DNA from: an uncultured Alphaproteobacteria bacterium | GTDB taxonomy: Bacteria > Pseudomonadota > Alphaproteobacteria > Rhizobiales > Methyloligellaceae | Length of the DNA stretch: 32,000 nucleotides | NCBI GenBank assembly: GCA_963742355.1 | Contig: CAVULQ010000005.1 | Location: 774,065-806,064, forward strand | Direction: 5' to 3' | Shown here: one piece after another, positions 4,422 through 14,861 of the stretch | Numbering within the stretch: the first letter of the stretch is position 1 | Layout: every line of letters starts with the position of its first letter | Position numbers and translations under genes: made by a program | Notes under the pieces: model-generated | Databases searched by the model: none | What the model was told of the DNA's origin: nothing | Seen by the model: the letters and a program-made list of their open reading frames with translations, nothing else

Positions 4422-4688
4422 ATGGTGAAGACGATCACGACAATCTTGCTCGGGCTCGCGGCTTTGGCCGGCCCGGCGCTGGCCGAGACCTCCACGGCGG
4501 CAGCACCGGCGAAATGCGAGGTGGCAGAGGTCAATCCCGTCACCGGCTATGTGGGCTGCATCAAGCCGCTCGGCGCTCCGGTCGATCCTCCGCCCGCCGA
4601 GGCCGCCGCGCCGTGCAATCCCGATCAAGCGCGCGGTCAGTGGACCTGGGGCCCGAACTGCACCGAGCTCGATCTCAAGGGCATGTGA
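4422..4688 (+). CDS. Small secreted Cys-containing protein
   Basis: ATG at 4422 follows GGAGAG. The signal peptide is MVKTITTILLGLAALAGPALA, and the mature part has 4 Cys. Confidence 0.55.
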   Translation: MVKTITTILLGLAALAGPALAETSTAAAPAKCEVAEVNPVTGYVGCIKPLGAPVDPPPAEAAAPCNPDQARGQWTWGPNCTELDLKGM

Positions 4689-4698
4689 GGCGGGAGGC

Positions 4699-4902
4699 AT
4701 GACCCTCGCCAAGCCGGGAGGCTGGTACTTCTTCGTGGCGTGCGCGAGCTGCGGCCGACGGATCATGTTTCGGGAAGCGTCCCCGCTCGCGGAGGACGAG
4801 CATCCGGCCGGCGGGACACTGATCTGTCCTCATTGCGGGGCCGAGCACAGCTACCTTGCCTCGCAAGTGCAGCGCGGCCAGGTCCGCGAGAAGGGCGCGT
4901 AG
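4699..4902 (+). CDS. Small zinc-ribbon protein
   Basis: ATG at 4699 follows GGGAGG. Two CxxC pairs are present (CASCGRR...CPHCGAE). It lies 11 nt after the preceding stop, which suggests an operon. Confidence 0.55.
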   Translation: MTLAKPGGWYFFVACASCGRRIMFREASPLAEDEHPAGGTLICPHCGAEHSYLASQVQRGQVREKGA

Positions 4903-4937: not shown

Positions 4938-5198
4938 CTATGAGTGCTGGTCGCGCTTTGCGTCGAAGATGAAGACGACGTTGGCGAGCTCGTCAGCGAT
5001 GCCGTCCGACGCTTCACGCAGAGGACGCGCGGGGATCTGCCAAAACCCTCGCATGGTGGTCGCTTCTTGCTGACAGTCCGAGCAGTGGACGGCGCCGTCG
5101 GAAGAGAGCCAGAAGGTGAAGCACCCGCAGCGGCACTGCCACACCTCTGGCTCGGGCCTGACGGGCTTCGCGGGCGTGTTGAATTCGATCACGGACAT
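4938..5198 (-). CDS. Hypothetical Cys-rich protein (86 aa)
   Basis: Track ORF with GGGGAG upstream and a CRCGC...CSDC putative metal-binding cluster. Confidence 0.5.
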   Translation of the reverse strand: MSVIEFNTPAKPVRPEPEVWQCRCGCFTFWLSSDGAVHCSDCQQEATTMRGFWQIPARPLREASDGIADELANVVFIFDAKRDQHS

Positions 5199-5327
5199 GG
5201 CCGCTCCCCCATGGCGTTAGCCGGCACGAGCGCGCGCGAATCACCTGATCGCTCGGGTGCAATGGTGAGGCGGAATTGGTGAAGCGAAGGTTAACGGCCG
5301 AGCAGACCAGACGCCTACGTAACTGTC

Positions 5328-5507
5328 TCAGCTAGGCTTATCGTCAATCGTCGCGGAAACGACTTTGGTGTCCCTGAAAGCCTTGCTGATTTCTTCTGTG
5401 GTCTCTTTGATGGCCTGCCGCAATGCTTCCGACATATCGGCTCGGCTATCACGCTCCTTCGGCTCCTCGTCGATGAAAAGCTGATCGCTATTGTTTCGGC
5501 CCATCAT
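5328..5507 (-). CDS. Unlisted 59-codon ORF overlapping the 3' end of the proteasome-like gene
   Basis: One codon under the track's apparent length cutoff. My translation is MMGRNNSDQLFIDEEPKERDSRADMSEALRQAIKETTEEISKAFRDTKVVSATIDDKPS, highly charged. It overlaps the upstream gene by 20 nt in another frame. An internal ATG (MSEALRQ...) is an alternative start. Confidence 0.3.
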   Translation of the reverse strand: MMGRNNSDQLFIDEEPKERDSRADMSEALRQAIKETTEEISKAFRDTKVVSATIDDKPS

Positions 5508-6795
5508 CCTTCTCCGCGGCTGGTGGTCTTCTAACGCGGTCGAAGTACCGAGCGTTCAGTTCTGGTGGGAAATAATGCTTCCTTTTCACCCAAACAAAGC
5601 CCTCTGCCTTAGATATCACCGCAACGTCGATCGGTCCGCCGACCGTTTCCATTCCCCGAGAAACTCGTCGCTTAATGGAGGTGAGTTCTACCAATGCCTC
5701 TGCCATCTTTGCGAGCTCCGGCTTCGGCATAAACTCTACCATATCTTCAATTTCCTTGCGTGACTGCTCTCTTATCGTCTTAAACGCTTTATCGTTCAAA
5801 CTAGCGAGAAATGAGGCCTCCGCAGTCTTGGCGCTTTTCTTTAAGGCATCTAATTTTGCTTTACTTCTTACTTTGACTTTATCGAAGATTTCATCCGATA
5901 TTTTTGACACGCCCTCCCGACAAAAATCCTTCACCCCCTTCTGTATTTCGTCGTCGAGGCCGTAAAGAAATCTGTCCACCATTTCTTTTTGAGCGAACGG
6001 AAGTACTGCCGCCTTCGCTCCTTCTCGATCAATATCGTATTTTCCAGTCACCCTGTATTTTACTGCGCTAATGAGTAAGCCATCTATTTCATTGGATATA
6101 AGCTTTGGGAAACGTTCCTTTGCTCCAAAACCAGCAACGACAATGCCAGTGCGAGAACTAGAAAAATAATCCTTAGTGATAACAAGCTCGCAAACTTTGA
6201 GCAATCTTCCGTCATCAAAGCTAGAAAATCTCGGATCGATCAGCCCTTCAAGGAACTCTCTATCTTCTTTCCTCAATATAATTTTCGCGGCATCAATAAA
6301 ATCTGCCTTCTTACGTTTTGATAGACTGGTTATAAACGGGTCAACTATGTGAGAAAAAACAATAGCCGCGATTTCGTCGACAGATTTTCCTGGAAACTCA
6401 TCATTGAACAGCGCCCCCATAAACTGGTCCTCATGCGCATCAGTTATATATTTCAGAACTGGGGTAACGTCCTTCAGTGAGCGCTCTAATACTTTTTCAG
6501 GGCTTTCCTGCCCTATTTCATTCAAATATTTTAGAAAAGAGCGAGCCGCCTGCTCAACGGTATCAAAGTTGTTATGGATCTCTCTGAAAGCTTTTATCAG
6601 TGAAGGTAGTGGCATTTCCATGAATGAAAGGCCATTATACACCATTATTCCAATGGGTTGAGTGAGAGAAAGCTCGAACAATTTGTCGGCTGTGTCGAAT
6701 ATCTTTTCCTGCTTCTGGCCCGCAGATATCGTGACCGCGTTGTCGGCAGCAAGGGCCACCGCAGTCTTATTCAAGATGGCTATCTCAGCCGTCAT
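5488..6795 (-). CDS. Orphan large proteasome-beta/HslV-like (Ntn hydrolase fold) protein with large helical insertions
   Basis: The track ORF is 440 aa from a TTG at 6810. I prefer the ATG at 6795, which gives MTAEIAILNKTAVALAADNAVT. Codon usage is visibly AT-rich, unlike all neighbours. Thr directly follows Met, Asp sits at +17, and Lys at +30 and +37 are followed by IF/LF. There is a central GIVVAGFG strand. The C-terminal GGPIDVAVISKAEGFVWV resembles the SGGxIxVxxIxKDG strands of proteasome subunits. Confidence 0.75.
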   Translation of the reverse strand: MTAEIAILNKTAVALAADNAVTISAGQKQEKIFDTADKLFELSLTQPIGIMVYNGLSFMEMPLPSLIKAFREIHNNFDTVEQAARSFLKYLNEIGQESPEKVLERSLKDVTPVLKYITDAHEDQFMGALFNDEFPGKSVDEIAAIVFSHIVDPFITSLSKRKKADFIDAAKIILRKEDREFLEGLIDPRFSSFDDGRLLKVCELVITKDYFSSSRTGIVVAGFGAKERFPKLISNEIDGLLISAVKYRVTGKYDIDREGAKAAVLPFAQKEMVDRFLYGLDDEIQKGVKDFCREGVSKISDEIFDKVKVRSKAKLDALKKSAKTAEASFLASLNDKAFKTIREQSRKEIEDMVEFMPKPELAKMAEALVELTSIKRRVSRGMETVGGPIDVAVISKAEGFVWVKRKHYFPPELNARYFDRVRRPPAAEKDDGPKQ

Positions 6796-6995
6796 TGATT
6801 TGACCAGCAAGTGAAAGCGACGCTAGTGGCAATCCCAGGCTCGCAGCTAGTGCCTCGGTTGGCGCAACTGCCCCCTTGTGCCCGAGTCGTGCCGAACCCC
6901 CAACAGGATTAGTTGTACCTTCTTTGATTTCCCTCGTTGCGACCAAGGGGAACAGCGCCCAAAGGTATGTGAAAAATAGCCTAGGAAAAAAGTCC

Positions 6996-7024
6996 TTGAC
7001 AGCGTGACGCTGTTTGGGTAGGGT
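6996..7024 (+). promoter_or_regulatory. Sigma-70-like promoter facing the GTA cluster
   Basis: TTGACA (6996-7001), a 17-nt spacer, then TAGGGT (7019-7024). The spacer contains the palindrome AGCGT-G-ACGCT (7001-7011). Confidence 0.45.
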
Positions 7025-7052
7025 TCAGCTACAACACGACAGTTGCGCGAGC

Positions 7053-7085
7053 CGCCGCTTCCGAAGGGAGGCGGCGTTTTTGTTT
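7053..7085 (+). terminator. Intrinsic terminator-like hairpin in the leader upstream of GTA g1
   Basis: A 10-bp stem (7053-7062 pairs with 7067-7076, one G-U pair) with a GAAG loop, followed by TTTTTGTTT. The T-run is present only on the + strand. Confidence 0.6.
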
Positions 7086-7129
7086 AAGGCTCGCGCGACG
7101 GCGGCCACACTTCCGACATCGGCAATGAC

Positions 7130-7714
7130 ATGGAGCAGGACGACCCTCAGCCCGAGGGCGAAGCGGATGCGCATGCGGCGCATCGCGACGGCGTCGACTG
7201 GGAGGAGATCAAGCACGCCGTCATCGACGGCGACTGGTCGCTGCAGCGGATCGCGGAAGCGCACGGCGTCGGCGAAACCACGATCAGAACCCGGATGCAG
7301 AAAGAGCGCTGGGTCCGCCTGGTCGGCACCAAGCCGTTGCCCTCGGGGCGGCGCGCGGGAGCACTGGGCGTGCCCAAAGAAAAGCGAGCGAAGCCCAAAC
7401 CGTTTCGCCGGCGGCAGATGGTGCAGCGGCTGTTCCAGGTGCTGGACGCCAAGTTGACGGAGATCGAGAAGCGCATGGCAGCAGGACAAAGCGGAGAGGC
7501 GACGGCGAGCGCGGCCGACGCCGAGCGCGACGCGCGCAGCCTCGCGGCGCTTGCGCGGCTTTACGCCAAGCTCGTCGAGCTTGACGAGGCGGCGAAGCAA
7601 GGAGGACAGGGCAGCACGCAAGAGAGCGCCAAGGAGACGAGCGAAGATGCGGACAGACTCCGCCAGGATCTTGCGCTCCGCCTTAAGCGCGTCGATCGAC
7701 CAGGGGACGCTTAG
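7130..7714 (+). CDS. GTA g1-like protein (HTH, putative small terminase or DNA-recognition subunit)
   Basis: 194-aa ORF immediately upstream of and overlapping TerL. It has an HTH-like segment (WSLQRIAEAHGVGETTIRTRMQKERW) and a charged coiled C-terminus. The call rests mainly on position. Confidence 0.6.
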   Translation: MEQDDPQPEGEADAHAAHRDGVDWEEIKHAVIDGDWSLQRIAEAHGVGETTIRTRMQKERWVRLVGTKPLPSGRRAGALGVPKEKRAKPKPFRRRQMVQRLFQVLDAKLTEIEKRMAAGQSGEATASAADAERDARSLAALARLYAKLVELDEAAKQGGQGSTQESAKETSEDADRLRQDLALRLKRVDRPGDA

Positions 7715-8996
7715 CCGATTCCTTGCAAGCCTTTCGCCTGGCGAGCTCAGCTTTCTTCACTACGATTTCGCGCTGTGGGCGCGCGACGACCAGTTGCCGC
7801 CGGAAGCGGCGCTTGGGGGAGGGGCGTGGACCATTTGGCTCATGCTCGGGGGCCGCGGCGCGGGCAAAACGCGCGCGGGCGCCGAGTGGGTGCGGAGCAT
7901 CGCGACGGCTTCTCGCGACGATCACCGCGGCGCGGCGCGGATCGCGCTCGTGGGAGAGACGCTCGCCGATGCGCGGAGCGTGATGGTCGAGGGCGTGTCG
8001 GGTCTGCTCGCCGTGCACGCGCCGGACGCGCGGCCGCTCTACGAGCCGTCGAAGCGCATGGTGAGCTGGGCGAACGGCGCGGTGGCGCAGCTCTTCTCGG
8101 CGGAGGACCCCGATTCTCTGCGCGGCCCGCAATTCTCCGCCGCCTGGTGCGACGAGCTCGGCAAATGGAAGAAGCCCGACGAGACCTGGGCCATGCTGCA
8201 ATTCTGCTTGAGGTTGGGGGAGCGCCCTCGCCAGGTGGTGACGACCACGCCGCGGCCGACGAAGCTGATCAAATCTCTGATCGCCGATCCGCTCGTGGCG
8301 GTGACGCGCGTCTCGACCGCGGCGAACGCCGCCAATCTCGCGCCTTCCTTCTTGGAGAGCGTGGTCGGGCGCTATCGCGGCACGCGGCTCGGGCGGCAAG
8401 AGCTCGACGCCGAGCTGCTGGAAGACCGCGCTGACGCGCTGTGGCCGCGCGCTTTGATCGAGGCTGCTCGCGTGAGCGCCGCGCCGGAGCTGACGCGCAT
8501 CGTCGTTGCGGTCGATCCGCCGGCCTCGTCGGGACCGCATGCCGATGCCTGCGGCATCGTCGTGGCGGGGCTTGGGGAGGATGCACGCGCCTATGTGCTT
8601 GGCGATGCGACGGTCGAGCATGCGCGGCCGCTCGACTGGGCGCGCGCGGTGATCCGCGCCTATCGGCGCTACGAGGCCGACCGCATCGTGGTCGAGATCA
8701 ATCAAGGGGGCGACCTCGTCGAGACGGTGCTGCGTCAGGTCGATGCAAGCGTGCCGGTGCGCGCGGTGCGTGCTTCGCGCGGCAAGTGGCTGCGCGCCGA
8801 GCCGGTCGCGGCGCTCTACGAGCAGGGCCGTGTCGCCCATGTCGGCGCGCTGCCAGAGCTCGAGGACGAGATGAGCGATTTCGGGCCCGACGGCTTGTCG
8901 GGCGGGCGCAGTCCCGACCGCGTCGACGCGCTCGTTTGGGCGCTGACCGAGCTTCTGTTGCGCGAGCGGCCAGAGCCCCGCGTGCGGTTCGTATGA
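7647..8996 (+). CDS. Terminase large subunit (GTA g2 / TerL)
   Basis: In frame with track ORF 7551..8996. ATG at 7647 follows AAGGAG. It carries LHYDFALWARDDQLPP, the Walker A GGRGAGKTRAGAEW, and a C-terminal nuclease region, as in RcGTA-type terminases. Confidence 0.9.
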   Translation: MRTDSARILRSALSASIDQGTLSRFLASLSPGELSFLHYDFALWARDDQLPPEAALGGGAWTIWLMLGGRGAGKTRAGAEWVRSIATASRDDHRGAARIALVGETLADARSVMVEGVSGLLAVHAPDARPLYEPSKRMVSWANGAVAQLFSAEDPDSLRGPQFSAAWCDELGKWKKPDETWAMLQFCLRLGERPRQVVTTTPRPTKLIKSLIADPLVAVTRVSTAANAANLAPSFLESVVGRYRGTRLGRQELDAELLEDRADALWPRALIEAARVSAAPELTRIVVAVDPPASSGPHADACGIVVAGLGEDARAYVLGDATVEHARPLDWARAVIRAYRRYEADRIVVEINQGGDLVETVLRQVDASVPVRAVRASRGKWLRAEPVAALYEQGRVAHVGALPELEDEMSDFGPDGLSGGRSPDRVDALVWALTELLLRERPEPRVRFV

Positions 8997-9015: not shown

Positions 9016-10245
9016 ATGCCAATGACTTTGAGCGAGCGGCTCGTGCGATTCCTCGGGTTCGAAGGGAAGGCGAGCAAGACCGCCAAGCTCATCGCCTGGA
9101 CGACGGGCGGCCAGCCGGTGTGGACGCCGCGCGACCTCGCCGCACTCGCCCGCGAGGGCTTCACCAAGAACGCGATCGTCTATCGCGCCGTGCGCATGAT
9201 CGCCGAGGCCGCGGCATCCGTGCCGCTGTTCCTGTTCGATGGCGAGCGCGAAATCGACACCCACCCGCTGCTTGCGCTGCTCGCGCGGCCGAACCCGATG
9301 CAATGCGGGCCCGATCTGCTCGAGGCCTGGTACGGGCATCTCATGGTCGCGGGCAATTCCTATCTCGAGGCAGTATCGGTGGCAGGCGTTGTGCGCGAGC
9401 TGCATGTGCTTCGCCCCGACCGCATGAAGGTGGTGCCGGGGCCTGACGGCTGGCCCGAGGCTTACGACTATACGGTCGGAGGACAGACGGTGCGCTTCGA
9501 GCAGGATGCCGGGGAGGGCGTGCGCCCAATCCTGCATATGGGCCTGTTCCACCCGCTCAACGACCATTACGGCTTGAGCCCGCTCGAGCCGGCGGCGACC
9601 GGCATCGACCTGCACAATGCGTCAGGCGCATGGAACAAGGCGCTGCTCGACAATTCCGCCTGTCCCTCCGGCGCCCTCGTCTACACCGCCAAGGACGGAC
9701 AGCTCACGCCGGAACAATTCGACCGGCTCAAGGCCGAGCTCGAGGAGAGCTTCCAGGGGGCGAAGAACGCAGGCCGGCCGCTCCTGCTCGAAGGCGGCCT
9801 CGACTGGAAGGCGATGGCCTTCTCGCCGAAGGACATGGACTTCATCGCGGCGCGGAACGTTGCCGCGCGCGAGGTTGCGCTCGCTTTGGGCGTGCCGCCG
9901 ATGCTGCTCGGCATTCCCGGCGACAATACTTATTCCAATTACGCCGAGGCCAACCGCTCGTTCTGGCGCCAGACGGTGCTGCCAGTGGTGAAGCGCACCG
10001 CCAAGGCGCTGTCGGGATGGCTCGCGCCGTCCTTCGTCGGTTCAGAGCCGAGCGCAGTGCCGGAGCAGCCCGCGCTCGAGCTTCGTCCCGATCTCGACGC
10101 GATCGAGGCGCTGAGCACCGAGCGCGAGGCCTTGTGGGAGCGCGTGCGCCGCAGCGATTTCCTCACCGTCAACGAGAAGCGCGCCGCGGTCGGCTATGGC
10201 GCCATCGACGGCGGCGACCAGCTCGGTTCGGCTCCTCAAGGCTAA
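9016..10245 (+). CDS. HK97-family portal protein (GTA g3)
   Basis: 409 aa. Supporting segments are NAIVYRAVRMIAEAAASVP, AGNSYLE and NRSFWRQTVLP, plus the position between terminase and protease. Confidence 0.9.
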   Translation: MPMTLSERLVRFLGFEGKASKTAKLIAWTTGGQPVWTPRDLAALAREGFTKNAIVYRAVRMIAEAAASVPLFLFDGEREIDTHPLLALLARPNPMQCGPDLLEAWYGHLMVAGNSYLEAVSVAGVVRELHVLRPDRMKVVPGPDGWPEAYDYTVGGQTVRFEQDAGEGVRPILHMGLFHPLNDHYGLSPLEPAATGIDLHNASGAWNKALLDNSACPSGALVYTAKDGQLTPEQFDRLKAELEESFQGAKNAGRPLLLEGGLDWKAMAFSPKDMDFIAARNVAAREVALALGVPPMLLGIPGDNTYSNYAEANRSFWRQTVLPVVKRTAKALSGWLAPSFVGSEPSAVPEQPALELRPDLDAIEALSTEREALWERVRRSDFLTVNEKRAAVGYGAIDGGDQLGSAPQG

Positions 10246-10264
10246 TTTGCGAAAGACAGAACAC

Positions 10265-10861
10265 ATGCTGCAACGCTTCGGCGACACCTTGCCAGAGCGC
10301 GAGGTGAAGTTCGCGCCCTGCGACCTCAAATCGGTCGAGGCCGACGGCACCTTCACCGGTTATGCCAGCCTGTTCGGCGAGGTCGATCTCGGCCAGGACC
10401 TGGTCATGCCGGGCGCCTTCCGCGAGAGCCTTCGGCTCCGGGGTGCAAGAGGCGTGAAGCTCCTGTTCCAGCACGACCCCAACGAGCCGATCGGGGTGTG
10501 GCTCGAGCTTGCCGAGGACAGTCGTGGACTGTTCGCGCGAGGTCGGCTCATGCCGGAGGTGACGCGGGCACGTGAGGTGTTGTCGCTGATGCGGGCTGGA
10601 GCGCTTGACGGGCTCTCGATCGGCTTCCGCACGGTGAAGGGCCGCACCGACCCCGCCACCGGTGTGCGCCGTCTCGATCAGATCGATCTCTGGGAGATCT
10701 CGGTCGTGACCTTCCCGATGCTGCCGGAGGCGCGGGTGAGCGCGGTAAAGCGGCGGCAGGCACGCTTCGTGGCGGGATCGCGTCATGTGGCAGGGCAGGG
10801 GTCAGATCGCCTGCGACTGCTGCGCAGCATACGCCGCGCCGCGCGCCTGATGCGCAGCTAG
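10265..10861 (+). CDS. HK97-family prohead protease (GTA g4)
   Basis: ATG at 10265 within track ORF 10196..10861. Typical S78 prohead protease segments are GTFTGYASLFGEVDLGQDLVMPGAF, KLLFQHD, GLSIGF and LWEISVVTFP. Confidence 0.9.
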   Translation: MLQRFGDTLPEREVKFAPCDLKSVEADGTFTGYASLFGEVDLGQDLVMPGAFRESLRLRGARGVKLLFQHDPNEPIGVWLELAEDSRGLFARGRLMPEVTRAREVLSLMRAGALDGLSIGFRTVKGRTDPATGVRRLDQIDLWEISVVTFPMLPEARVSAVKRRQARFVAGSRHVAGQGSDRLRLLRSIRRAARLMRS

Positions 10862-10888: not shown

Positions 10889-11131
10889 ATGCCACAAGGC
10901 GTGAGCTGGCAGCTCAGCGCTTCGCTTCGACGAGTAAGCTGGCTCCTGCATGCCGAACTTGTCGAGGCGAGGCTGCGCGATCTCGAACGCGCCGTCAAAG
11001 CCGGCTTTGATCCCAATCAGCCTCGTGTGGCGGCCGGCAACCCCGACGGTGGCCAATGGACAGGCACGGGCGGTAGGGGCACAAGCGGTGGGCTGACTGA
11101 GGTCGCGCAAAACGACCCGCCGACCGCCTGA
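10889..11131 (+). CDS. Hypothetical 80-aa protein with a DPNQPR...GGQWT linker-like motif
   Basis: Track ORF 10886..11131 (GTG, then ATG at 10889). It has a short helical N-terminus, then FDPNQPRVAAGNPDGGQWTGTGGRGTSGG. A truncated diverged copy of its 5' part recurs at about 11820-11893. Confidence 0.4.
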   Translation: MPQGVSWQLSASLRRVSWLLHAELVEARLRDLERAVKAGFDPNQPRVAAGNPDGGQWTGTGGRGTSGGLTEVAQNDPPTA

Positions 11132-11235
11132 GGGACATTCAGCAGGAGAGGCCGCACGACGTCACGTGGTAAGAGTTGGGATGAGCGAACAAGAGTAGGC
11201 CTGGACGCGCTTATTGAAATGCGGGTTCTGAAGCC

Positions 11236-11607
11236 ATGACAGACGTCGGTCTGGCGAAGCTAACGATCGAGGAGTTGATCGAGCGCTTTGCAACGCTGGG
11301 CTTAGACCAGCACGAAGCGATCCTTGATGACGACAATGAACGGTTCGCTCGATTGTTTTGGCAGATGGAAGCAGTTGAGGACGAACTAAAGTCGCGTCAA
11401 GGAGATCAGCGCCGCGCGTTGACACGCCTGTACGACCACCGCAATGCGCAGGTCCGATTGTGTGCGGCGAAAGCGACCTTGGCCGTGGCACCCGAAGAGG
11501 CACGGAGGCTCATCGAGAAGATCGCGAAGTCACATGAGTTTCCCCAAGCGGGCGACGCAGGCATGACACTGCGGGCGCTCGACGAAGGTATCTTCAAACC
11601 GACCTAG
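11236..11607 (+). CDS. DUF2019-like helical-repeat protein (possible orphan immunity protein)
   Basis: 123 aa. TIEELIERFATLGLDQHEAIL...RFARLFWQMEAVEDELKSR...LYDHRNAQVRLCAAKATLAVAPEEAR...FPQAGDAGMTLRALDEGIFKP matches my recollection of the DUF2019 family pattern. Confidence 0.6.
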   Translation: MTDVGLAKLTIEELIERFATLGLDQHEAILDDDNERFARLFWQMEAVEDELKSRQGDQRRALTRLYDHRNAQVRLCAAKATLAVAPEEARRLIEKIAKSHEFPQAGDAGMTLRALDEGIFKPT

Positions 11608-11616
11608 ATCAAGTGC

Positions 11617-11893
11617 TTCGATCGTCACCTTCCCCCATGCTGCCCGAGGCCGCGGGTGAGCGCCGTGAAGCGGCGGCATGCACGCTTCGTGGCGGGATCG
11701 CGTCATGCCGCCGGGGAGGGGAGGGACACTTCGCGCCTTGTGCGGAGCATTCGCCGCGCCACGCAGCTGCTGCGCGGATAGCGAAATTCATTCAGAGCTC
11801 TGGTCGTGGTCTTGCCCGACGTGAGCTGGCTCATGCATGCGCGTGTCGTGGAAGCGAAGCTCAGCGATCTCCGCTGCGCGGTCAAAGCTGCCT
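11617..11893 (+). pseudogene. Diverged, frameshifted duplicate of the prohead-protease 3' end plus the start of the downstream small ORF
   Basis: It aligns by eye with 10700-11004. VSAVKRRHARFVAGSRHAAGEGRDTSRLVRSIRRATQLLRG* matches the protease C-terminus VSAVKRRQARFVAGSRHVAGQGSDRLRLLRSIRRAARLMRS*. Two extra nt upstream break the frame. DVSWLMHARVVEAKLSDLRCAVKAA* follows, matching VSWLLHAELVEARLRDLERAVKAG in copy 1. Confidence 0.75.
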
Positions 11894-11972
11894 AACCCGG
11901 ATGTCGTATTTTAAGTCTTGTTAACCTTCGGGTGAGCGAGTGAAAGATATCGCACCTATTGCAGAGGCCTGT

Positions 11973-11992
11973 TATTGACTTATATGTCAATA
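11973..11992. promoter_or_regulatory. Candidate operator palindrome over the start codon of the cassette's first gene
   Basis: TATTGAC-TTATAT-GTCAATA: perfect 7-bp inverted arms with a 6-nt spacer. The ATG at 11984 lies inside it. Confidence 0.4.
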
Positions 11993-12487
11993 GAGGATGA
12001 AATCAAGGCTAGGGTGGTCGAAGGCCGTCTCTGCCCGATCCAGCCAAAGTTGCCGTCTGACCCGATTCTTCGGCCAATGTATGTGACGCCGGAACTGAAC
12101 GCACTCGTAAACGGCCCGTGGGCCGACGCAAAGCAGGAGGCGCGCTTTAGCGCACTGAGAGCCGACCTGGACTTCTTCGTAGCAGGCGGCCTTGTTAACA
12201 AGGGCTATATGAAGCCGCTGAGAAAGCGTGCAGACGAAGTGTGGGAAATCAGGAGCCGCGCGCCGTCGCCCAGCATTCGCCTCTTCGGCCGGTTCGCTAT
12301 GCCCAATGTGTTCATTGGGACAAATTGGGAATATCGATCATTTCTAGAGCTATTTGATCGCTGGAGAAGGAATAAACGGCAGGCGCAGGCCATATGGCGT
12401 CAGCTGTTCACTAACTACCCACCATATAGTGGTCAAAACACTCAAGATTACCTTACTATGAACTGGGAGGGCAACTACGATGAGTAG
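11984..12487 (+). CDS. Cassette gene A: RelE/ParE-superfamily (Gp49/HigB-type) toxin-like protein with an N-terminal extension
   Basis: The track ORF starts at a TTG at 11975, and an in-frame ATG lies at 11984. The gene is AT-rich. EVWEIRSRAPSPSIRLFGRFAMPNVFIGTNWEYRS resembles the xWExR...xRxxxxF core of Gp49/HigB-like toxins. At about 167 aa it is longer than typical toxins. Confidence 0.6.
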   Translation: MSIEDEIKARVVEGRLCPIQPKLPSDPILRPMYVTPELNALVNGPWADAKQEARFSALRADLDFFVAGGLVNKGYMKPLRKRADEVWEIRSRAPSPSIRLFGRFAMPNVFIGTNWEYRSFLELFDRWRRNKRQAQAIWRQLFTNYPPYSGQNTQDYLTMNWEGNYDE

Positions 12488-12893
12488 CAATATTGGTGGG
12501 CTCTCTCCAGCCGATCTTTCTTACTTCCGAGCTCGCCAGAAGAACCGTGTCTACGAAACGGTCATTAAGGCGTTTAGATCGGCCAACATAAGCAAGGCCG
12601 AAATTGCTAGACGCTTGAACCGAAAGCCGGAACAGATCACCAGGTGGCTATCCGGTCCAGGTAACTGGACCTTGGACACAGTAAGCGACCTTTTGCTTTC
12701 CTGCGGGAAGGAATTGGCCTTTACCTCACTCGAGATTGATCGCCCCCTTGAGACAAATTACATCCATCCTTTGGCAGAAGCCACAAGCTTTCATCAGCTG
12801 CAGTGGCAGGTTTCGAGAGCTTCAGAGAGACCAGAAAGGCCTACAAAAACAGAAACAACTGAACCACAGATGCTAGAGATTGTTGATGGGTAA
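12480..12893 (+). CDS. Cassette gene B: XRE-family HTH protein (antitoxin-like) with a long acidic/polar C-terminal tail
   Basis: Its ATG overlaps the stop of gene A (ATGAGTAG). ISKAEIARRLNRKPEQITRWLSGPGNWTLDTVSDLL is a classic HTH_XRE pattern. About 60 further residues follow, likely disordered. Confidence 0.75.
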   Translation: MSSNIGGLSPADLSYFRARQKNRVYETVIKAFRSANISKAEIARRLNRKPEQITRWLSGPGNWTLDTVSDLLLSCGKELAFTSLEIDRPLETNYIHPLAEATSFHQLQWQVSRASERPERPTKTETTEPQMLEIVDG

Positions 12894-13293
12894 GCCTGTC
12901 ATTGAGTATACGCTAGTATGCGATGATACCCGTCGCGAAGACAACGGAAAACTCATCCTTATCGGTGTGTATGGTGCCAATATACTCGTTTCATCTTTCC
13001 CAGCCGCGCTCACACTATCTCTCGTTAGCTTCATACGAAGCGACAGCACATTTGAGGCCGCTAATGCGGTGCGGGCTGTTCTAGACGGCGAAACTCTGAC
13101 TGAGGGCGGGGGCGTCTTTAGAATTCAGCCTGGCAGAGGGATTTCCGTGATTCCTACCCTTCCCCTAACCGTCCCCCACGCGGGAGAGGTAATCTTCGAA
13201 CAGAAGATCGGTGAGGATGATTGGCAAACGCTTGTGAGGGTGCCCGTCGGGCAGAGGGCTACTTCTGCCAGCGTGTTACCGGTGCTTTCTTAG
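12886..13293 (+). CDS. Cassette gene C: unknown beta-rich protein
   Basis: ATG at 12886 overlaps the end of gene B by 8 nt. The protein begins MGKPVIEYTLVCDDTRREDNGKLILIGVYGANILVSSFP. I cannot place it in a family with confidence. It is AT-rich like A and B. Confidence 0.6.
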   Translation: MGKPVIEYTLVCDDTRREDNGKLILIGVYGANILVSSFPAALTLSLVSFIRSDSTFEAANAVRAVLDGETLTEGGGVFRIQPGRGISVIPTLPLTVPHAGEVIFEQKIGEDDWQTLVRVPVGQRATSASVLPVLS

Positions 13294-13434
13294 CTATCCG
13301 CGGCCCGTTTGACAGAGAGATTTCCCCCGTGAATAATTCCGCCCTTCTTACGACCTCGCCACTTGCGAAATCGAGCATGTGTTCTGATTGAGGTTGCGGG
13401 CGCAGACAGCACACACTGCAATTCCGATTTCGTC

Positions 13435-13469
13435 ATGCCCGTGGGTTCGCCCGCGGGCATTCGTGTTTT
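13435..13469 (+). terminator. Terminator-like hairpin upstream of the capsid gene
   Basis: An 11-bp stem, ATGCCCGTGGG pairing with CCCGCGGGCAT (one G-U pair), with a TTCG loop, then TCGTGTTTT. The left arm GTCATGCCCG also begins the repeat at 19081. Confidence 0.5.
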
Positions 13470-13562
13470 GAGACCAGCCCCGATCAAGACGCGGATGGCG
13501 CTTTCACGCGCCATGACGGCCAGCTGAGTGGGGCGACGACCGCCCCAAAGAAGAGGAACGAC

Positions 13563-14861
13563 ATGAGCGAATCTGCAGAGACTGAGATGATCGAGACCAA
13601 GGCCGCCAGCGGCCTCGCGAGCGATGCCGGCACGAGCACCGCGGCGACCGGCGACGACGTGGCCATCGCCTTCGACGACTTCATGCGCGCCTTCGAATCG
13701 TTCAAGGCCGAGAACGAGCAGCGCATCCAGCAGCTCGAGAAGCGGCTGCCGGTGGATGTGCTCACCACCGAGAAGCTCGACCGCATCAACCGCGCCATCG
13801 ACGAGCACAAATCGGTGGTCGACGAGCTCGTGCTGAAATCGGGGCGGCCGAAGCTTGGGCAGGCAAGCGTCTATCGCAGCGGCGCCGCTCTCCAGCACAA
13901 GGCCGCTTTCGAAACGTACGTCCGGCACGGCGAGGCGAACGGCCTGCATCTCCTGGAAGAGAAGGCGCTGTCGGTCGGCTCAGGTCCCGACGGCGGCTAT
14001 CTCGTGCCGGCCGAGACCGAGGCTGCGGTGATCAGAGGCGTTAAGGACATCTCGCCGATCCGCGCCATCGCCGGCAATCGCACGGTGAGTGCCTCCGTGT
14101 ACAAGAAACCTTTCGCCATCAGCGGACCGTCGACCGGATGGGTGGCCGAGACGGCGACGCGTCCAGAGACCAACTCGCCGACGCTCGCCGAGCTTTCCTT
14201 CCCGACCATGGAGCTCTATGCCATGCCGTCAGCGACGCAGGCTCTGCTCGACGACTCGGCGGTCAATATCGACGAGTGGCTCGCCGAGGAGATCCAGGTC
14301 GCCTTCGCCCAGCAGGAGGGCACCGCCTTCGTCTCGGGCGACGGCACCAACAAGCCGAAGGGCTTCCTCGCTTACACCAAGGTGGCCAACGGCTCCTGGT
14401 CGTGGGGCAATATCGGCTACGTGGCGACCGGCACCGACGGCGGCTTCGATGCCACGAACCCGTCGGACGACCTGATCGACTTCATCTATACGCTGAAGTC
14501 CGAGTATCGGGCGAACGCGCATTGGGCGATGAACCGCGCCACGCAGGCGACGATCCGCAAGTTCAAGGACGCCGACGGCAATTATCTGTGGGCCCCCCCG
14601 GAGCGTGCCGACCTCGCGCCCACGCTGATGAACTATCCGATCGCCGAGTCCGAGGACATGCCCGACGTCTCCTCGAACAGCTACTCGGTCGCCTTCGGCG
14701 ATTTCCAGCGCGGCTATCTCGTGGTCGATCGCGCCGGCATTCGCGTGCTGCGCGATCCTTATTCCGCCAAGCCTTACGTCTTGTTCTACACGACCAAGCG
14801 CGTGGGCGGCGGCGTGCAGGATTTCGACGCGATCAAGCTTATGAAGTTCGGCACGTCGTAG
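13563..14861 (+). CDS. HK97-family major capsid protein (GTA g5)
   Basis: 432 aa. It has an N-terminal coiled delta-like region, then typical HK97 MCP segments (GGYLVP, ELSFPTMELYAMPSATQALLDDS, SGDGTNKPKGF, YTTKRVGGGV). Confidence 0.95.
   Translation: MSESAETEMIETKAASGLASDAGTSTAATGDDVAIAFDDFMRAFESFKAENEQRIQQLEKRLPVDVLTTEKLDRINRAIDEHKSVVDELVLKSGRPKLGQASVYRSGAALQHKAAFETYVRHGEANGLHLLEEKALSVGSGPDGGYLVPAETEAAVIRGVKDISPIRAIAGNRTVSASVYKKPFAISGPSTGWVAETATRPETNSPTLAELSFPTMELYAMPSATQALLDDSAVNIDEWLAEEIQVAFAQQEGTAFVSGDGTNKPKGFLAYTKVANGSWSWGNIGYVATGTDGGFDATNPSDDLIDFIYTLKSEYRANAHWAMNRATQATIRKFKDADGNYLWAPPERADLAPTLMNYPIAESEDMPDVSSNSYSVAFGDFQRGYLVVDRAGIRVLRDPYSAKPYVLFYTTKRVGGGVQDFDAIKLMKFGTS

Follow-up and report, generated by a model that had tools for sequence, protein, structure and literature searches.

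A window of 32,000 nucleotides (nt) from an uncultured alphaproteobacterium (Rhizobiales; Methyloligellaceae; assembly GCA_963742355.1, contig CAVULQ010000005.1, positions 774,065 to 806,064 of the forward strand) was analyzed for the content and origin of an AT-rich islet which carries two genes on the minus strand. The larger gene (5488-6795) encodes a protein of 435 amino acids (aa), which the open reading frame (ORF), an AlphaFold2 (AF2) model, Foldseek and phrog_5990 together mark as a probable proteasome-fold N-terminal nucleophile (Ntn) hydrolase with Thr1 as nucleophile, of the "Proteasome homolog with Multiple Insertions" (PMI) type and of the PHROG 5990 and Rrp/SP_1145 family. The smaller gene (5328-5507), a partner gene of 59 aa, is an ORF in another frame and overlaps the 3′ end of the hydrolase gene by 20 nt. 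To the right of the islet and divergent from it lies an RcGTA-like gene transfer agent (GTA) cluster, which opens with the small-terminase-like g1 (phrog_1206) and comprises g1, TerL, portal, S78 prohead protease, capsid and head-tail connector genes along with a 1,354-aa protein having GTA_TIM, Phage-tail_3 and Rcc01698_C domains. An initial annotation of this stretch, made from the letters alone, had placed the islet divergent from a phage-derived GTA cluster, which the identity of these genes bears out; it had also spoken of essentially one gene, and while the ORF at 5488-6795 is there, the 59-aa ORF had been missed.

The composition of the islet differs sharply from that of its surroundings. 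GC content is 0.478, 0.416 and 0.490 in three successive 500-nt windows (5501-7000), with 0.60-0.71 in the flanks. In 100-nt windows it goes from 0.65 to 0.51-0.56 at about 5250-5400, stays at 0.36-0.45 over the gene body and is at least 0.61 from about 7000 onward. By codon position the large ORF has a GC of 0.53/0.35/0.47, and the third-position value (GC3) of the neighbouring GTA genes is 0.80-0.87. The limits of the insertion were read by comparison with a metagenome contig syntenic with the window (L171), in which six left-flank ORFs, g1 and terL are found at 50-78% aa identity and the flanks at 73-79% nt identity. Homology of this contig ends at window position 5300 and restarts at 6971, so that 1,670 nt of the window lie between, and at the same site L171 has 409 unrelated nt in their place. 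Because the homology breaks off and resumes at these points with unrelated sequence between, the islet is a real insertion or replacement, and by these limits and the GC profile it is an inserted AT-rich cassette of 1,670 nt (5301-6970). The islet had initially been drawn at 5300-7020, within 50 nt of the limits found here, and the foreign origin then proposed for it agrees with its low GC relative to the flanks and its absence from L171. Horizontal acquisition thus brought in the segment 5301-6970 as a cassette of two genes. Direct repeats on either side of the insertion did not exceed chance, and no tRNA or Rfam family was found in the window. Since the L171 site holds 409 unrelated nt, the slot upstream of GTA g1 carries different cargo by strain. 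The sole ORF of these 409 nt (L171:5234-5642) encodes 38 hydrophobic aa (5435-5551, minus strand, MTGMFERWKDLHVGEPIDQPVIFALLVIAIAITLYVFL) and is reminiscent of a small membrane toxin.

For the comparative part of the work, 166 further loci were collected from GTDB genomes, from IMG/VR and from contigs encoding homologue-search matches, and these were dereplicated at 80% identity to 111 representatives, which stand at 30-55% identity, come from bacteria and archaea, and were used for the start-codon and Asp17 counts. Two alignments were used along with them, one of close relatives (A1) and a wider one of 108 diverse members (A2). The long ORF of the islet spans 5488-6810 if its first TTG is taken as start and 5488-6795 if the ATG is taken. 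A start codon (ATG, GTG or TTG) is followed directly by Thr in 110 of the 111 representatives and by Ser in the remaining one, and in 84 of them no in-frame start codon is present upstream before a stop; on this last count the TTG at 6810 was ruled out as the start of the window gene, and the ATG at 6795, which had been preferred from the outset, stands. The start-codon survey of these loci marks the codons ATG-ACG (6790-6795, minus strand) as Met1-Thr2, and loss of the Met would expose Thr1. Thr at P1′ is a standard substrate of methionine aminopeptidase, for which reason this exposure is expected. The hydrolase has no propeptide, its translation starting with Met-Thr.

The other residues of the proposed active site are conserved as well. 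The codon of Asp18 (6742-6744, minus strand) gives Asp17 of the mature chain, which is Asp in all 111 representative loci and aligns with Glu17 of Thermoplasma beta. The codon of Lys38 (6682-6684, minus strand) gives mature Lys37, the equivalent of Lys33, which lies in the motif D-K-L-F and does not vary in either A1 or A2; for Lys30 the conservation in the 108 sequences of A2 is 90% or more. The KLF of Lys37 aligns with the KKLF (K33) of Thermoplasma beta, the S2-S3 loop being 4 residues longer than that of the proteasome. With regard to the Gly47 oxyanion-hole position and the supporting residues Ser129/Asp166/Ser169, the alignment has PFAQ in place of GSG, as had been read initially in the form of FAQ, and ETVGGP in place of DSASGG, while Asn53 (mature numbering) is invariant in A1 and not in A2, with a varying residue after it. 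All the sequence details on which the first description had been built, namely the MT start at 6795, mature Asp17, Lys30, Lys37, GIVVAGFG, PFAQ and GGPIDVAVISKAEGFVWV, are present in the protein, and the conservation expected for Thr1, Asp17 and Lys is found across the family (Met-Thr in 110 loci and Met-Ser in one, Asp17 in 111, Lys37 invariant and Lys30 at 90% or more).

Such a gene could also be read as a scaffold without catalytic activity, as an alpha-subunit-like protein or as a pseudogene in decay, and the facts that Gly47 is not strictly conserved and that truncated tandem copies occur in three loci (L046, L067 and L084) would fit with this. The ORF of the window is intact, however, the start position and the Thr (one Ser), Asp and Lys are kept over 111 loci at 30-55% identity, and the characterized relative Rrp is active in vitro, which leaves this reading hardly credible.

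The fold was predicted by an AF2 model of the monomer built on 46 homologues, with a predicted local distance difference test (pLDDT) score of 81 and a predicted template modelling score (pTM) of 0.72. The order of elements is four N-terminal strands, six helices (63-207), four strands (216-266), four helices (270-373), two strands (382-406) and a short helix. Helical region 1 (residues 63-207; 6175-6609, minus strand; pLDDT above 90) corresponds in the model to H1/H2 plus an insertion of about 100 residues and fills the stretch from strand S4 to the GIVVAGFG strand with six helices, in place of the two of beta subunits; within the family its sequence varies greatly and shows no consensus in the alignment columns. 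Helical region 2 (residues 270-373; 5677-5988, minus strand) corresponds to H3/H4 plus an insertion of about 70 residues and has modelled helices at 270-278, 282-306, 312-354 and 358-373, where beta subunits have about 35 residues. The two helical insertions are accordingly located in the model where the initial annotation had put them, at H1/H2 and H3/H4. When the model was searched against PDB by Foldseek, the top 50 matches were all 20S alpha or beta subunits, with a probability of mostly 1.00, a best E-value (E) of 3.3e-4 and a target-normalised template modelling score of 0.33-0.54; against BFVD the best matches were phage proteasome-like proteins. The large protein is thus predicted to have the proteasome Ntn fold (an alpha-beta-beta-alpha sandwich), and the proteasome/HslV-like fold that had been proposed from the sequence is upheld by these 50 matches and by the alignment of its Thr with Thr1 of Thermoplasma beta.

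By sequence the relationship is remote. When the window protein was searched directly in Pfam, NCBIfam, PADLOC and PDB sequences, nothing significant was obtained. A match to Pfam PF00227, for which the first description had proposed to look, was not found for the window protein, and in its relatives the family appears below threshold, as the commonest sub-threshold Pfam family (11 of the 108 members, best E 2.4e-4; the next family in 4 members). The profile of the 108 members reached Thermoplasma proteasome beta in PDB at E 0.013, in two collinear stretches. The first aligns TAEIAILNK..LAADSAVT to TTTVGITLKDAVIMATERRVT of Thermoplasma beta, so that Thr falls on Thr1, Asp on Glu17 and KLF on KKLF, and the second aligns GGPIDVAVISKgdGF to GGMIDVAVITRKDGY. 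In hhalign, with reference sequences of Thermoplasma beta and E. coli HslV that were both confirmed as PF00227 members, the family profile gave a local C-terminal match to Thermoplasma beta at a probability of 38% (A1) and 76% (A2), the latter covering the GGxIDVAVI strand, and no match to HslV. A phage homologue weakly matches the PHROG "peptidase HslV family", and phrog_5990 ("unknown function") matches the window protein end to end (residues 1-420, E 8e-91).

The protein therefore shares with 20S beta and HslV (PF00227) the Ntn sandwich, the N-terminal Thr, the acidic residue 17, the Lys before S3 and the C-terminal GGxIDVAVI strand, and it differs from them in being twice the size, in having PFAQ for the GSG loop, in scoring below the PF00227 gathering score and in having no propeptide. 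The family's insertions fall, by comparison of the monomer model with the account of Fuchs et al. (PMC8665760), where ring contacts form in 20S beta. In the HslVU system an HslV of about 175 residues stands beside the AAA+ HslU, whereas the window protein has 435 aa and no conserved AAA+ neighbour.

The small gene is the second part of the cassette. Its ATG has a GGAG 7 nt on the 5′ side. A same-strand ORF of 40-90 aa starting between -80 and +60 nt of the hydrolase stop is present in 96 of the 109 representative loci which have enough downstream sequence (about 88%, across bacteria, archaea and phages), as against 161 of 628 when the ends of the remaining long ORFs of the loci were tested in this way. 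The commonest arrangement of the two genes is a 4-nt ATGA overlap. By phmmer the small proteins group into sequence families, among them a group of 26 from Nitrospirae, Planctomycetes, Firmicutes, Cyanobacteria, Chloroflexi and archaea, and an alphaproteobacterial group of 16 in which the window copy is included. A recurrent motif of the small proteins is E-[FWY]-x-[KR]-x-[FY]-[FY]-P, after which come G-x-x-L-A and an amphipathic helix; the alphaproteobacterial ones have L-x-x-L-[LIV] and after it [LI]-x-x-x-[IV]-x-x-T-x-x-x-I-x-x-A-F, then a basic tail. The small ORFs have no match in Pfam and no recognisable DNA-binding domain. The ORF is annotated in a Providencia phage and is a called gene in pneumococcal assemblies, and it is unannotated in E. 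coli RefSeq. The second gene is positioned for translational coupling, and its product is a fast-evolving helical protein of about 60 residues. An all-against-all BLAST of 3,861 flanking ORFs gave no larger conserved neighbour beyond lineage-specific synteny, the best flanking-gene cluster being present in only 7 of the 111 loci, and since no other neighbour is conserved, the hydrolase and the small gene are taken as the conserved unit.

Several variations of the small gene were observed. In E. coli H3 (L170:6957-8413; NZ_CP010167.1, 2824399-2825855) the hydrolase is WP_000123148.1, of 427 aa, annotated as "hypothetical protein", and a 49-aa ORF (L170 8264-8413, MSLKQAYERTQPKSINDFFQLSTSGKSRRTVTSQSNFFTKLNKTLPAQS) lies 3′ of it which is absent from the RefSeq annotation and is identical in about 15 IMG/VR prophage loci. 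In three loci a second hydrolase copy stands directly downstream in place of the small partner (L046:7343-8017, L067:7303-8460, L084:~7280-8350); these copies lack the N-terminal Thr segment as ORF-called and may be tandem paralogues, possibly inactive subunits of an alpha-like kind, or duplicates in decay. A same-strand upstream ORF of 80-93 aa overlaps the hydrolase start at L001:7769-8011, where it ends in AEIARKAAAVRWRKDDG, and equivalents occur in L007, L013, L023, L039 and L046. The window has no such ORF, and in these six loci it may represent a third lineage-specific component or a regulator. The small partners of L099, L121, L123, L129, L135, L139 and L159 have a hydrophobic-aromatic C-terminus (..LFCW, ..FSFSW, ..YFNW, ..SFTW, ..SFFSR). 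HbYX-type C-terminal tails dock activators onto proteasomes, and HslU onto HslV, and the tails of this group recall these.

The family to which the hydrolase belongs is very large, patchily distributed and almost always lower in GC than its flanks. A word-indexed search gave at least 2,514 homologues, and an exhaustive hidden Markov model search, with E up to 1e-3, gave at least 5,783 clusters at 50% identity, 2,960 of them still within a limit of 1e-30; among the 150 best matches listed, nearly all begin at profile position 1. With such numbers the word "orphan" used in the first description has to be given up, and the family is among the largest proteasome-related prokaryotic families still without a Pfam model. 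At least 564 loci were confirmed in GTDB species genomes, spanning Alpha- and Gammaproteobacteria, Nitrospirota, Gemmatimonadota, Planctomycetota, Firmicutes, Cyanobacteria, Actinobacteria, Bacteroidota, Chloroflexota, Acidobacteriota and several archaea, and 186 loci were confirmed in IMG/VR. In 102 of 105 representative loci the hydrolase gene has a lower GC than its flanks, with a median difference of -10 points and a largest one of -31.

Mobile carriers of several kinds were found. In the Providencia phage PSTRCR_117lys the cassette lies between antiterminator Q/Dam and holin, with the small ORF annotated, and in the lambdoid prophage of E. coli H3 (WP_000123148.1) it lies between Q and Dam/tRNAs/holin. 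It is also carried by Stenotrophomonas and Porphyromonas phages, by Streptococcus satellites (401-aa homologues at the accessory end, near RelBE) and by plasmids of rhizobia, Pantoea, Ruegeria and Enterococcus. Most chromosomal copies are solitary islets amid housekeeping genes, in which helix-turn-helix (HTH), IS1, integrase and methylase neighbours are only occasional. Among the 150 nearest neighbours neither a mobile nor a defence family predominates, and the idea of a defence island therefore gave way to that of a solitary mobile cassette; the placement of homologues in defence islands, which had been named at first as a point to check, is not borne out, as the immediate neighbours are not enriched for defence genes. 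An AAA+ unfoldase or an alpha-type partner was found neither among the listed Pfam families of 150 flanking ORFs nor in the gene tables of the loci.

This distribution bears on whether the gene could be a host housekeeping or stress protease like HslV, Anbu or BPH, with its AT-rich location a matter of chance. The proteasome fold and the catalytic triad would agree with such a role, and the authors of the Rrp preprint see in their protein a general-purpose protease which clears aberrant proteins (bioRxiv 10.64898/2026.08.10.744006). A housekeeping gene would not, however, be expected to be missing from the syntenic L171, to have a GC below its flanks in nearly all loci, or to be found in just 22 of 5,426 complete E. 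coli genomes, with at least one copy in a lambdoid prophage. SP_1145 itself is present in 1 of the 18 pneumococcal genomes of PneumoBrowse, no AAA+ partner is prominent among the 150 neighbours and no larger neighbour is conserved, and on these grounds a housekeeping role is considered quite improbable.

The GTA cluster beside the window cassette is not the only one with such cargo. RcGTA-like head clusters of Sphingomonadales also hold the cassette, on the same strand as the head genes, between terL and portal (L012:4666-8670, L024:2-3456) or between prohead protease and capsid (L026:315-4923, L088:3-6792), which gives at least three distinct GTA-associated intergenic sites with the window included. 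GTA-embedded copies make up 3 of about 34 alphaproteobacterial genome loci, as against about 0.2 expected if the cluster is about 0.5% of the genome, an expectation which is rough; nor are the loci all independent. The cassette occupies classical moron sites, from Q to the lysis genes and at the ends of satellites, and also these three or more intergenic sites of RcGTA-like head clusters. In the GTA comparative literature checked there is no mention of inserted cargo in GTA clusters, and the question is raised whether GTA clusters carry morons. The anomalous composition of the window is explained by the insertion of mobile cargo beside a putative GTA promoter.

A second AT-rich islet was observed in the window at 10900-13550 (GC 0.49-0.60). 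It lies within the GTA head cluster, where the S78 prohead protease gene (10196-10861) borders it on one side and the capsid gene (13563-14861) on the other. Its ORFs are a DUF2019 protein (11236-11607), a 170-aa ORF (11975-12487), an HTH_3/XRE-like protein (12480-12893) and a weak DUF6941 match (12880-13293). The gap between protease and capsid is shared by this islet and by the cassettes of L026 and L088, which suggests a GTA cargo slot.

Such placements could also mean that the protease serves its carrier element or the GTA, by processing virion, scaffold or lysis proteins or by remodelling host proteins (e.g. ribosomal ones) late, rather than defending the host. The four Sphingomonadales cassettes (L012, L024, L026 and L088) are co-directional with the head genes, so that co-transcription is possible, and the copy of the Providencia phage lies within the late operon from Q to holin. 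Rrp cleaves ribosomal protein bL27's N-terminal extension and is found on ribosomes, and the Dokland laboratory has described the same extension motif on staphylococcal phage capsid and scaffold proteins. Against this, most loci are solitary chromosomal islets with no phage genes near, the copies of the window and of the E. coli H3 prophage lie on the strand opposite to the GTA or late genes, GTA clusters have their own S78 prohead protease, L171 has the same g1-terL start of a GTA without the cassette, and Gram-negative bL27 has no extension according to the Rrp preprint. Service to the carrier is therefore held to be unlikely, though it is the most probable of the alternatives.

The architecture of the protein is not without precedent. 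Fuchs, Alva and Lupas (2021) described 22 new proteasome-like subfamilies including PMI-1 to PMI-6, and in their account a long insertion after H1/H2 is present in PMI-3 and PMI-4, an H3/H4 insertion in PMI-2 to PMI-6, propeptides are absent, and insertions at these sites may prevent ring stacking (PMC8665760). According to the same paper PMI-4 is the abundant type, with 501 sequences at nr90, and is spread over Proteobacteria, Firmicutes, Actinobacteria, Bacteroidetes, PVC, Cyanobacteria, other bacteria, Euryarchaeota and phages. The family of the window resembles the PMI types so described in its Thr1/Asp17/Lys33 beta-sheet core, in the absence of a propeptide, in the insertions after H1/H2 and between H3/H4 and in a spread that includes phages. 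It is likely to be PMI-4, an assignment made by architecture, abundance and spread and not by the sequence of the representative HDY66466.1. It departs from the published account, in which no informative genomic context is reported, in having a conserved partner gene. In the literature on PMI names, phrog_5990 and WP_000123148 nothing was found beyond Fuchs et al. The compact PPH and AAH proteins of that paper are like the present family in being proteasome-like genes spread by phages, and unlike it in being group I proteins without insertions (PPH of about 140 residues), the family here being group II-like, rich in insertions and of about 400-450 residues.

One member of the family has been characterized. 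SP_1145 of S. pneumoniae TIGR4, named "Rrp" ("Ribosome rescue protease"), was reported in a preprint of 11 August 2026 (bioRxiv 10.64898/2026.08.10.744006) as a 44.8-kDa Ntn/proteasome-like protease with "additional extended domains", encoded on a horizontally acquired phage-like element and placed in the Anbu/proteasome group. According to this preprint Rrp is active with relaxed specificity and multiple cleavage sites in vitro, co-purifies with ribosomes and elutes early on size-exclusion chromatography; it trims the N-terminal extension of bL27 when Prp is missing, it rescues a prp deletion, and its expression slows the growth of E. coli. Rrp thus works without SP_1146, and the growth effect too was seen without this downstream gene. 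Thr1, the PMI classes and Fuchs et al. are not discussed there. As bL27 of Gram-negative bacteria is stated in the preprint to have no extension, trimming of that extension is implausible as the native role of the window protein.

The link to Rrp was made by a search seeded with the 401-aa homologue of a streptococcal satellite, which reached pneumococcal members of 396-397 aa. The protein of one pneumococcal locus (L172) has 396 aa and a mass of 44.86 kDa, and its gene stands at the end of an int/repressor/DnaD/DnaI element, beside IS630 and addB/addA-type helicase-nuclease genes, taken as rexB/rexA. The TIGR4 primers "SP1145 F" and "SP1146 R" (PMC2045101) match this locus exactly, the one inside the gene and the other at its junction with a 58-aa ORF. 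The L172 protein aligns with the window protein over the full length at 31% identity (E 2e-49). By mass, element context, primer matches and full-length homology the window protein is accordingly assigned to the same family as SP_1145/Rrp. The two have in common the layout MTAEI...D17...DKLF/KLF...GxVxAG[FY]G...PFAQ...ETVG[GD]P[IV]DV and a small ORF downstream (58 aa in pneumococcus, at the SP_1146 position), and they differ in that Rrp has 396 aa and lies on a Firmicute satellite-like island, whereas the window protein has 435 aa and lies in an alphaproteobacterial islet by a GTA cluster. The statement of the initial annotation that no bacterial homologue of this architecture had been described thus fell with PMI (PMC8665760), PHROG 5990 and SP_1145/Rrp; by the condition set there, that homologues should not prove to be an already characterized family, its claim of novelty fails with Rrp of August 2026, though only just and only recently. 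Taken as a whole its structural reading was largely right, and its claims of an orphan and of a novel architecture were wrong.

Connectase, a monomeric proteasome homologue of archaea (PMC7980362), gives a further comparison, for it too has a helical insertion thought to confer specificity and probably forms no ring-like degradation machine. It suggests that the window protein might be a connectase-like sequence-specific ligase or transpeptidase, or a dedicated maturase, with the small partner as the substrate that is cleaved, cyclised or ligated. The high specificity of connectase is ascribed to the insertion over its active site by Fuchs et al. (PMC8665760), and the family here has helical insertions as well as a co-evolving partner in which the conserved motif E-[FWY]-x-[KR]-x-[FY]-[FY]-P precedes a helix. 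The relaxed specificity of Rrp, its multiple sites in vitro and its activity without SP_1146 speak against this, as do the different positions of the insertions (S3-S4 with no H1/H2 in connectase, as given in the same paper) and the lack of conserved export, modification or immunity genes nearby. Connectase is a methanogen ligase, while the H1/H2 of the window family is expanded and its characterized relative is a protease of relaxed specificity, and a role of this kind is held to be distinctly improbable.

The explanation that we favour overall, with a probability of about 60%, is a mobile two-gene cassette in which a Thr-protease and a small cognate protein form an accessory conflict-type module. 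In this cassette methionine aminopeptidase would expose Thr1, which would then act as the nucleophile in peptide-bond cleavage. The variable helical insertions may cap the active site or replace ring contacts and would set the specificity for substrate or partner; such a cap would control how the active site is reached and would probably bind the small protein that evolves along with it. This small protein would be the cognate regulator of the protease (an inhibitor, an antitoxin or an activator) or its dedicated substrate. The pair would then constitute a self-contained accessory module of mobile elements, of a toxin-antitoxin-like, exclusion or abortive-infection kind, and not a housekeeping protease. 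Of the traits of type II toxin-antitoxin systems the coupled two-gene layout is present, and Rrp alone slows the growth of E. coli; the growth defect of Rrp without its partner fits with a conflict module without proving it. A role in defence or interference is compatible with the placement on phages, satellites and plasmids and is speculative.

A more specific form of this explanation can be given, in which the hydrolase and its partner of about 60 residues are an undescribed threonine-protease conflict module (toxin-antitoxin-like, abortive-infection or exclusion), borne as a moron by phages, satellites, plasmids and GTA clusters, and the small protein gates a promiscuous protease that hits ribosomal or virion proteins once the gate is lost. 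This form is tentative, and we regard it as possible and somewhat doubtful. If it is true, the recurrent lodging in GTA clusters would imply that slots for cargo of this kind exist in GTAs as they do in prophages.

Several observations weigh against the favoured explanation. The oxyanion-hole Gly47 is not obviously conserved, its position being occupied by Asn53/Gly54, and the AF2 model has a pLDDT below 50 at residues 21-35 and 376-384, near conserved residues. The similarity to PF00227 stays below the Pfam threshold, and the window protein gives no match to it at E up to 10. On the side of function, PADLOC-DB v2 gave 0 families at E up to 10 for the window protein, and the 150 nearest neighbours, searched with Pfam and PADLOC, carried no defence-island signal, with only scattered methyltransferase, HTH and PDC matches. 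Removal of the Met, catalysis by Thr1 and the role of the small protein are all predictions. Toxicity in E. coli on over-expression is non-specific evidence, and the Rrp preprint (bioRxiv 10.64898/2026.08.10.744006) has no active-site mutant and no mention of SP_1146. The identity with PMI-4 is likewise deduced from architecture and distribution only.

The only characterized member was presented in August 2026 as a peculiarity of the pneumococcus by which the value of Prp as a drug target is undermined. The present survey places Rrp-like proteases in a pan-prokaryotic, horizontally mobile cassette, in which, across the family, the start codon is immediately followed by that of Thr1. The conserved small partner gene is apparently new, as it is mentioned neither in the Rrp preprint nor in the available part of the PMI paper, and the systematic low-GC islet behaviour and the recurrent GTA and moron placement appear not to be described in these related papers, as far as their accessible text goes.

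Some features around the cassette may also be recorded. Within the inserted segment, the 175 nt on the 5′ side of the hydrolase gene (6796-6970, minus strand) presumably carry its promoter, and a sigma-70 promoter scan of this region gave no convincing match. The cassette ends 26 nt upstream of a promoter-like element which precedes g1 and is largely conserved in L171. This element (6996-7024, plus strand) consists of TTGACA (6996-7001), a 17-nt spacer with the palindrome CAGCGTGACGCTG (7000-7012) and TAGGGT (7019-7024). Next comes a strong terminator-like hairpin (7053-7076, plus strand) of 10 pairs, 8 of them GC, with a T-run at 7077-7086, which ends 44 nt before the g1 ATG (7130). Element and hairpin together (6996-7086) may be a GTA promoter with a leader terminator. 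Anti-termination control of the GTA cluster (GafYZ) is known in Caulobacter. To the left of the islet lie a small Cys-rich ORF (4549-4902, plus strand), with weak matches to Lar_restr_allev and a zinc ribbon (E 1e-3), and an 86-aa CxC...CxxC protein (4938-5198, minus strand), which is kept in L171 at 63% identity. Since they are GC-rich and the 86-aa one is conserved in L171, these two Cys-rich ORFs belong to the host flank and not to the cassette.

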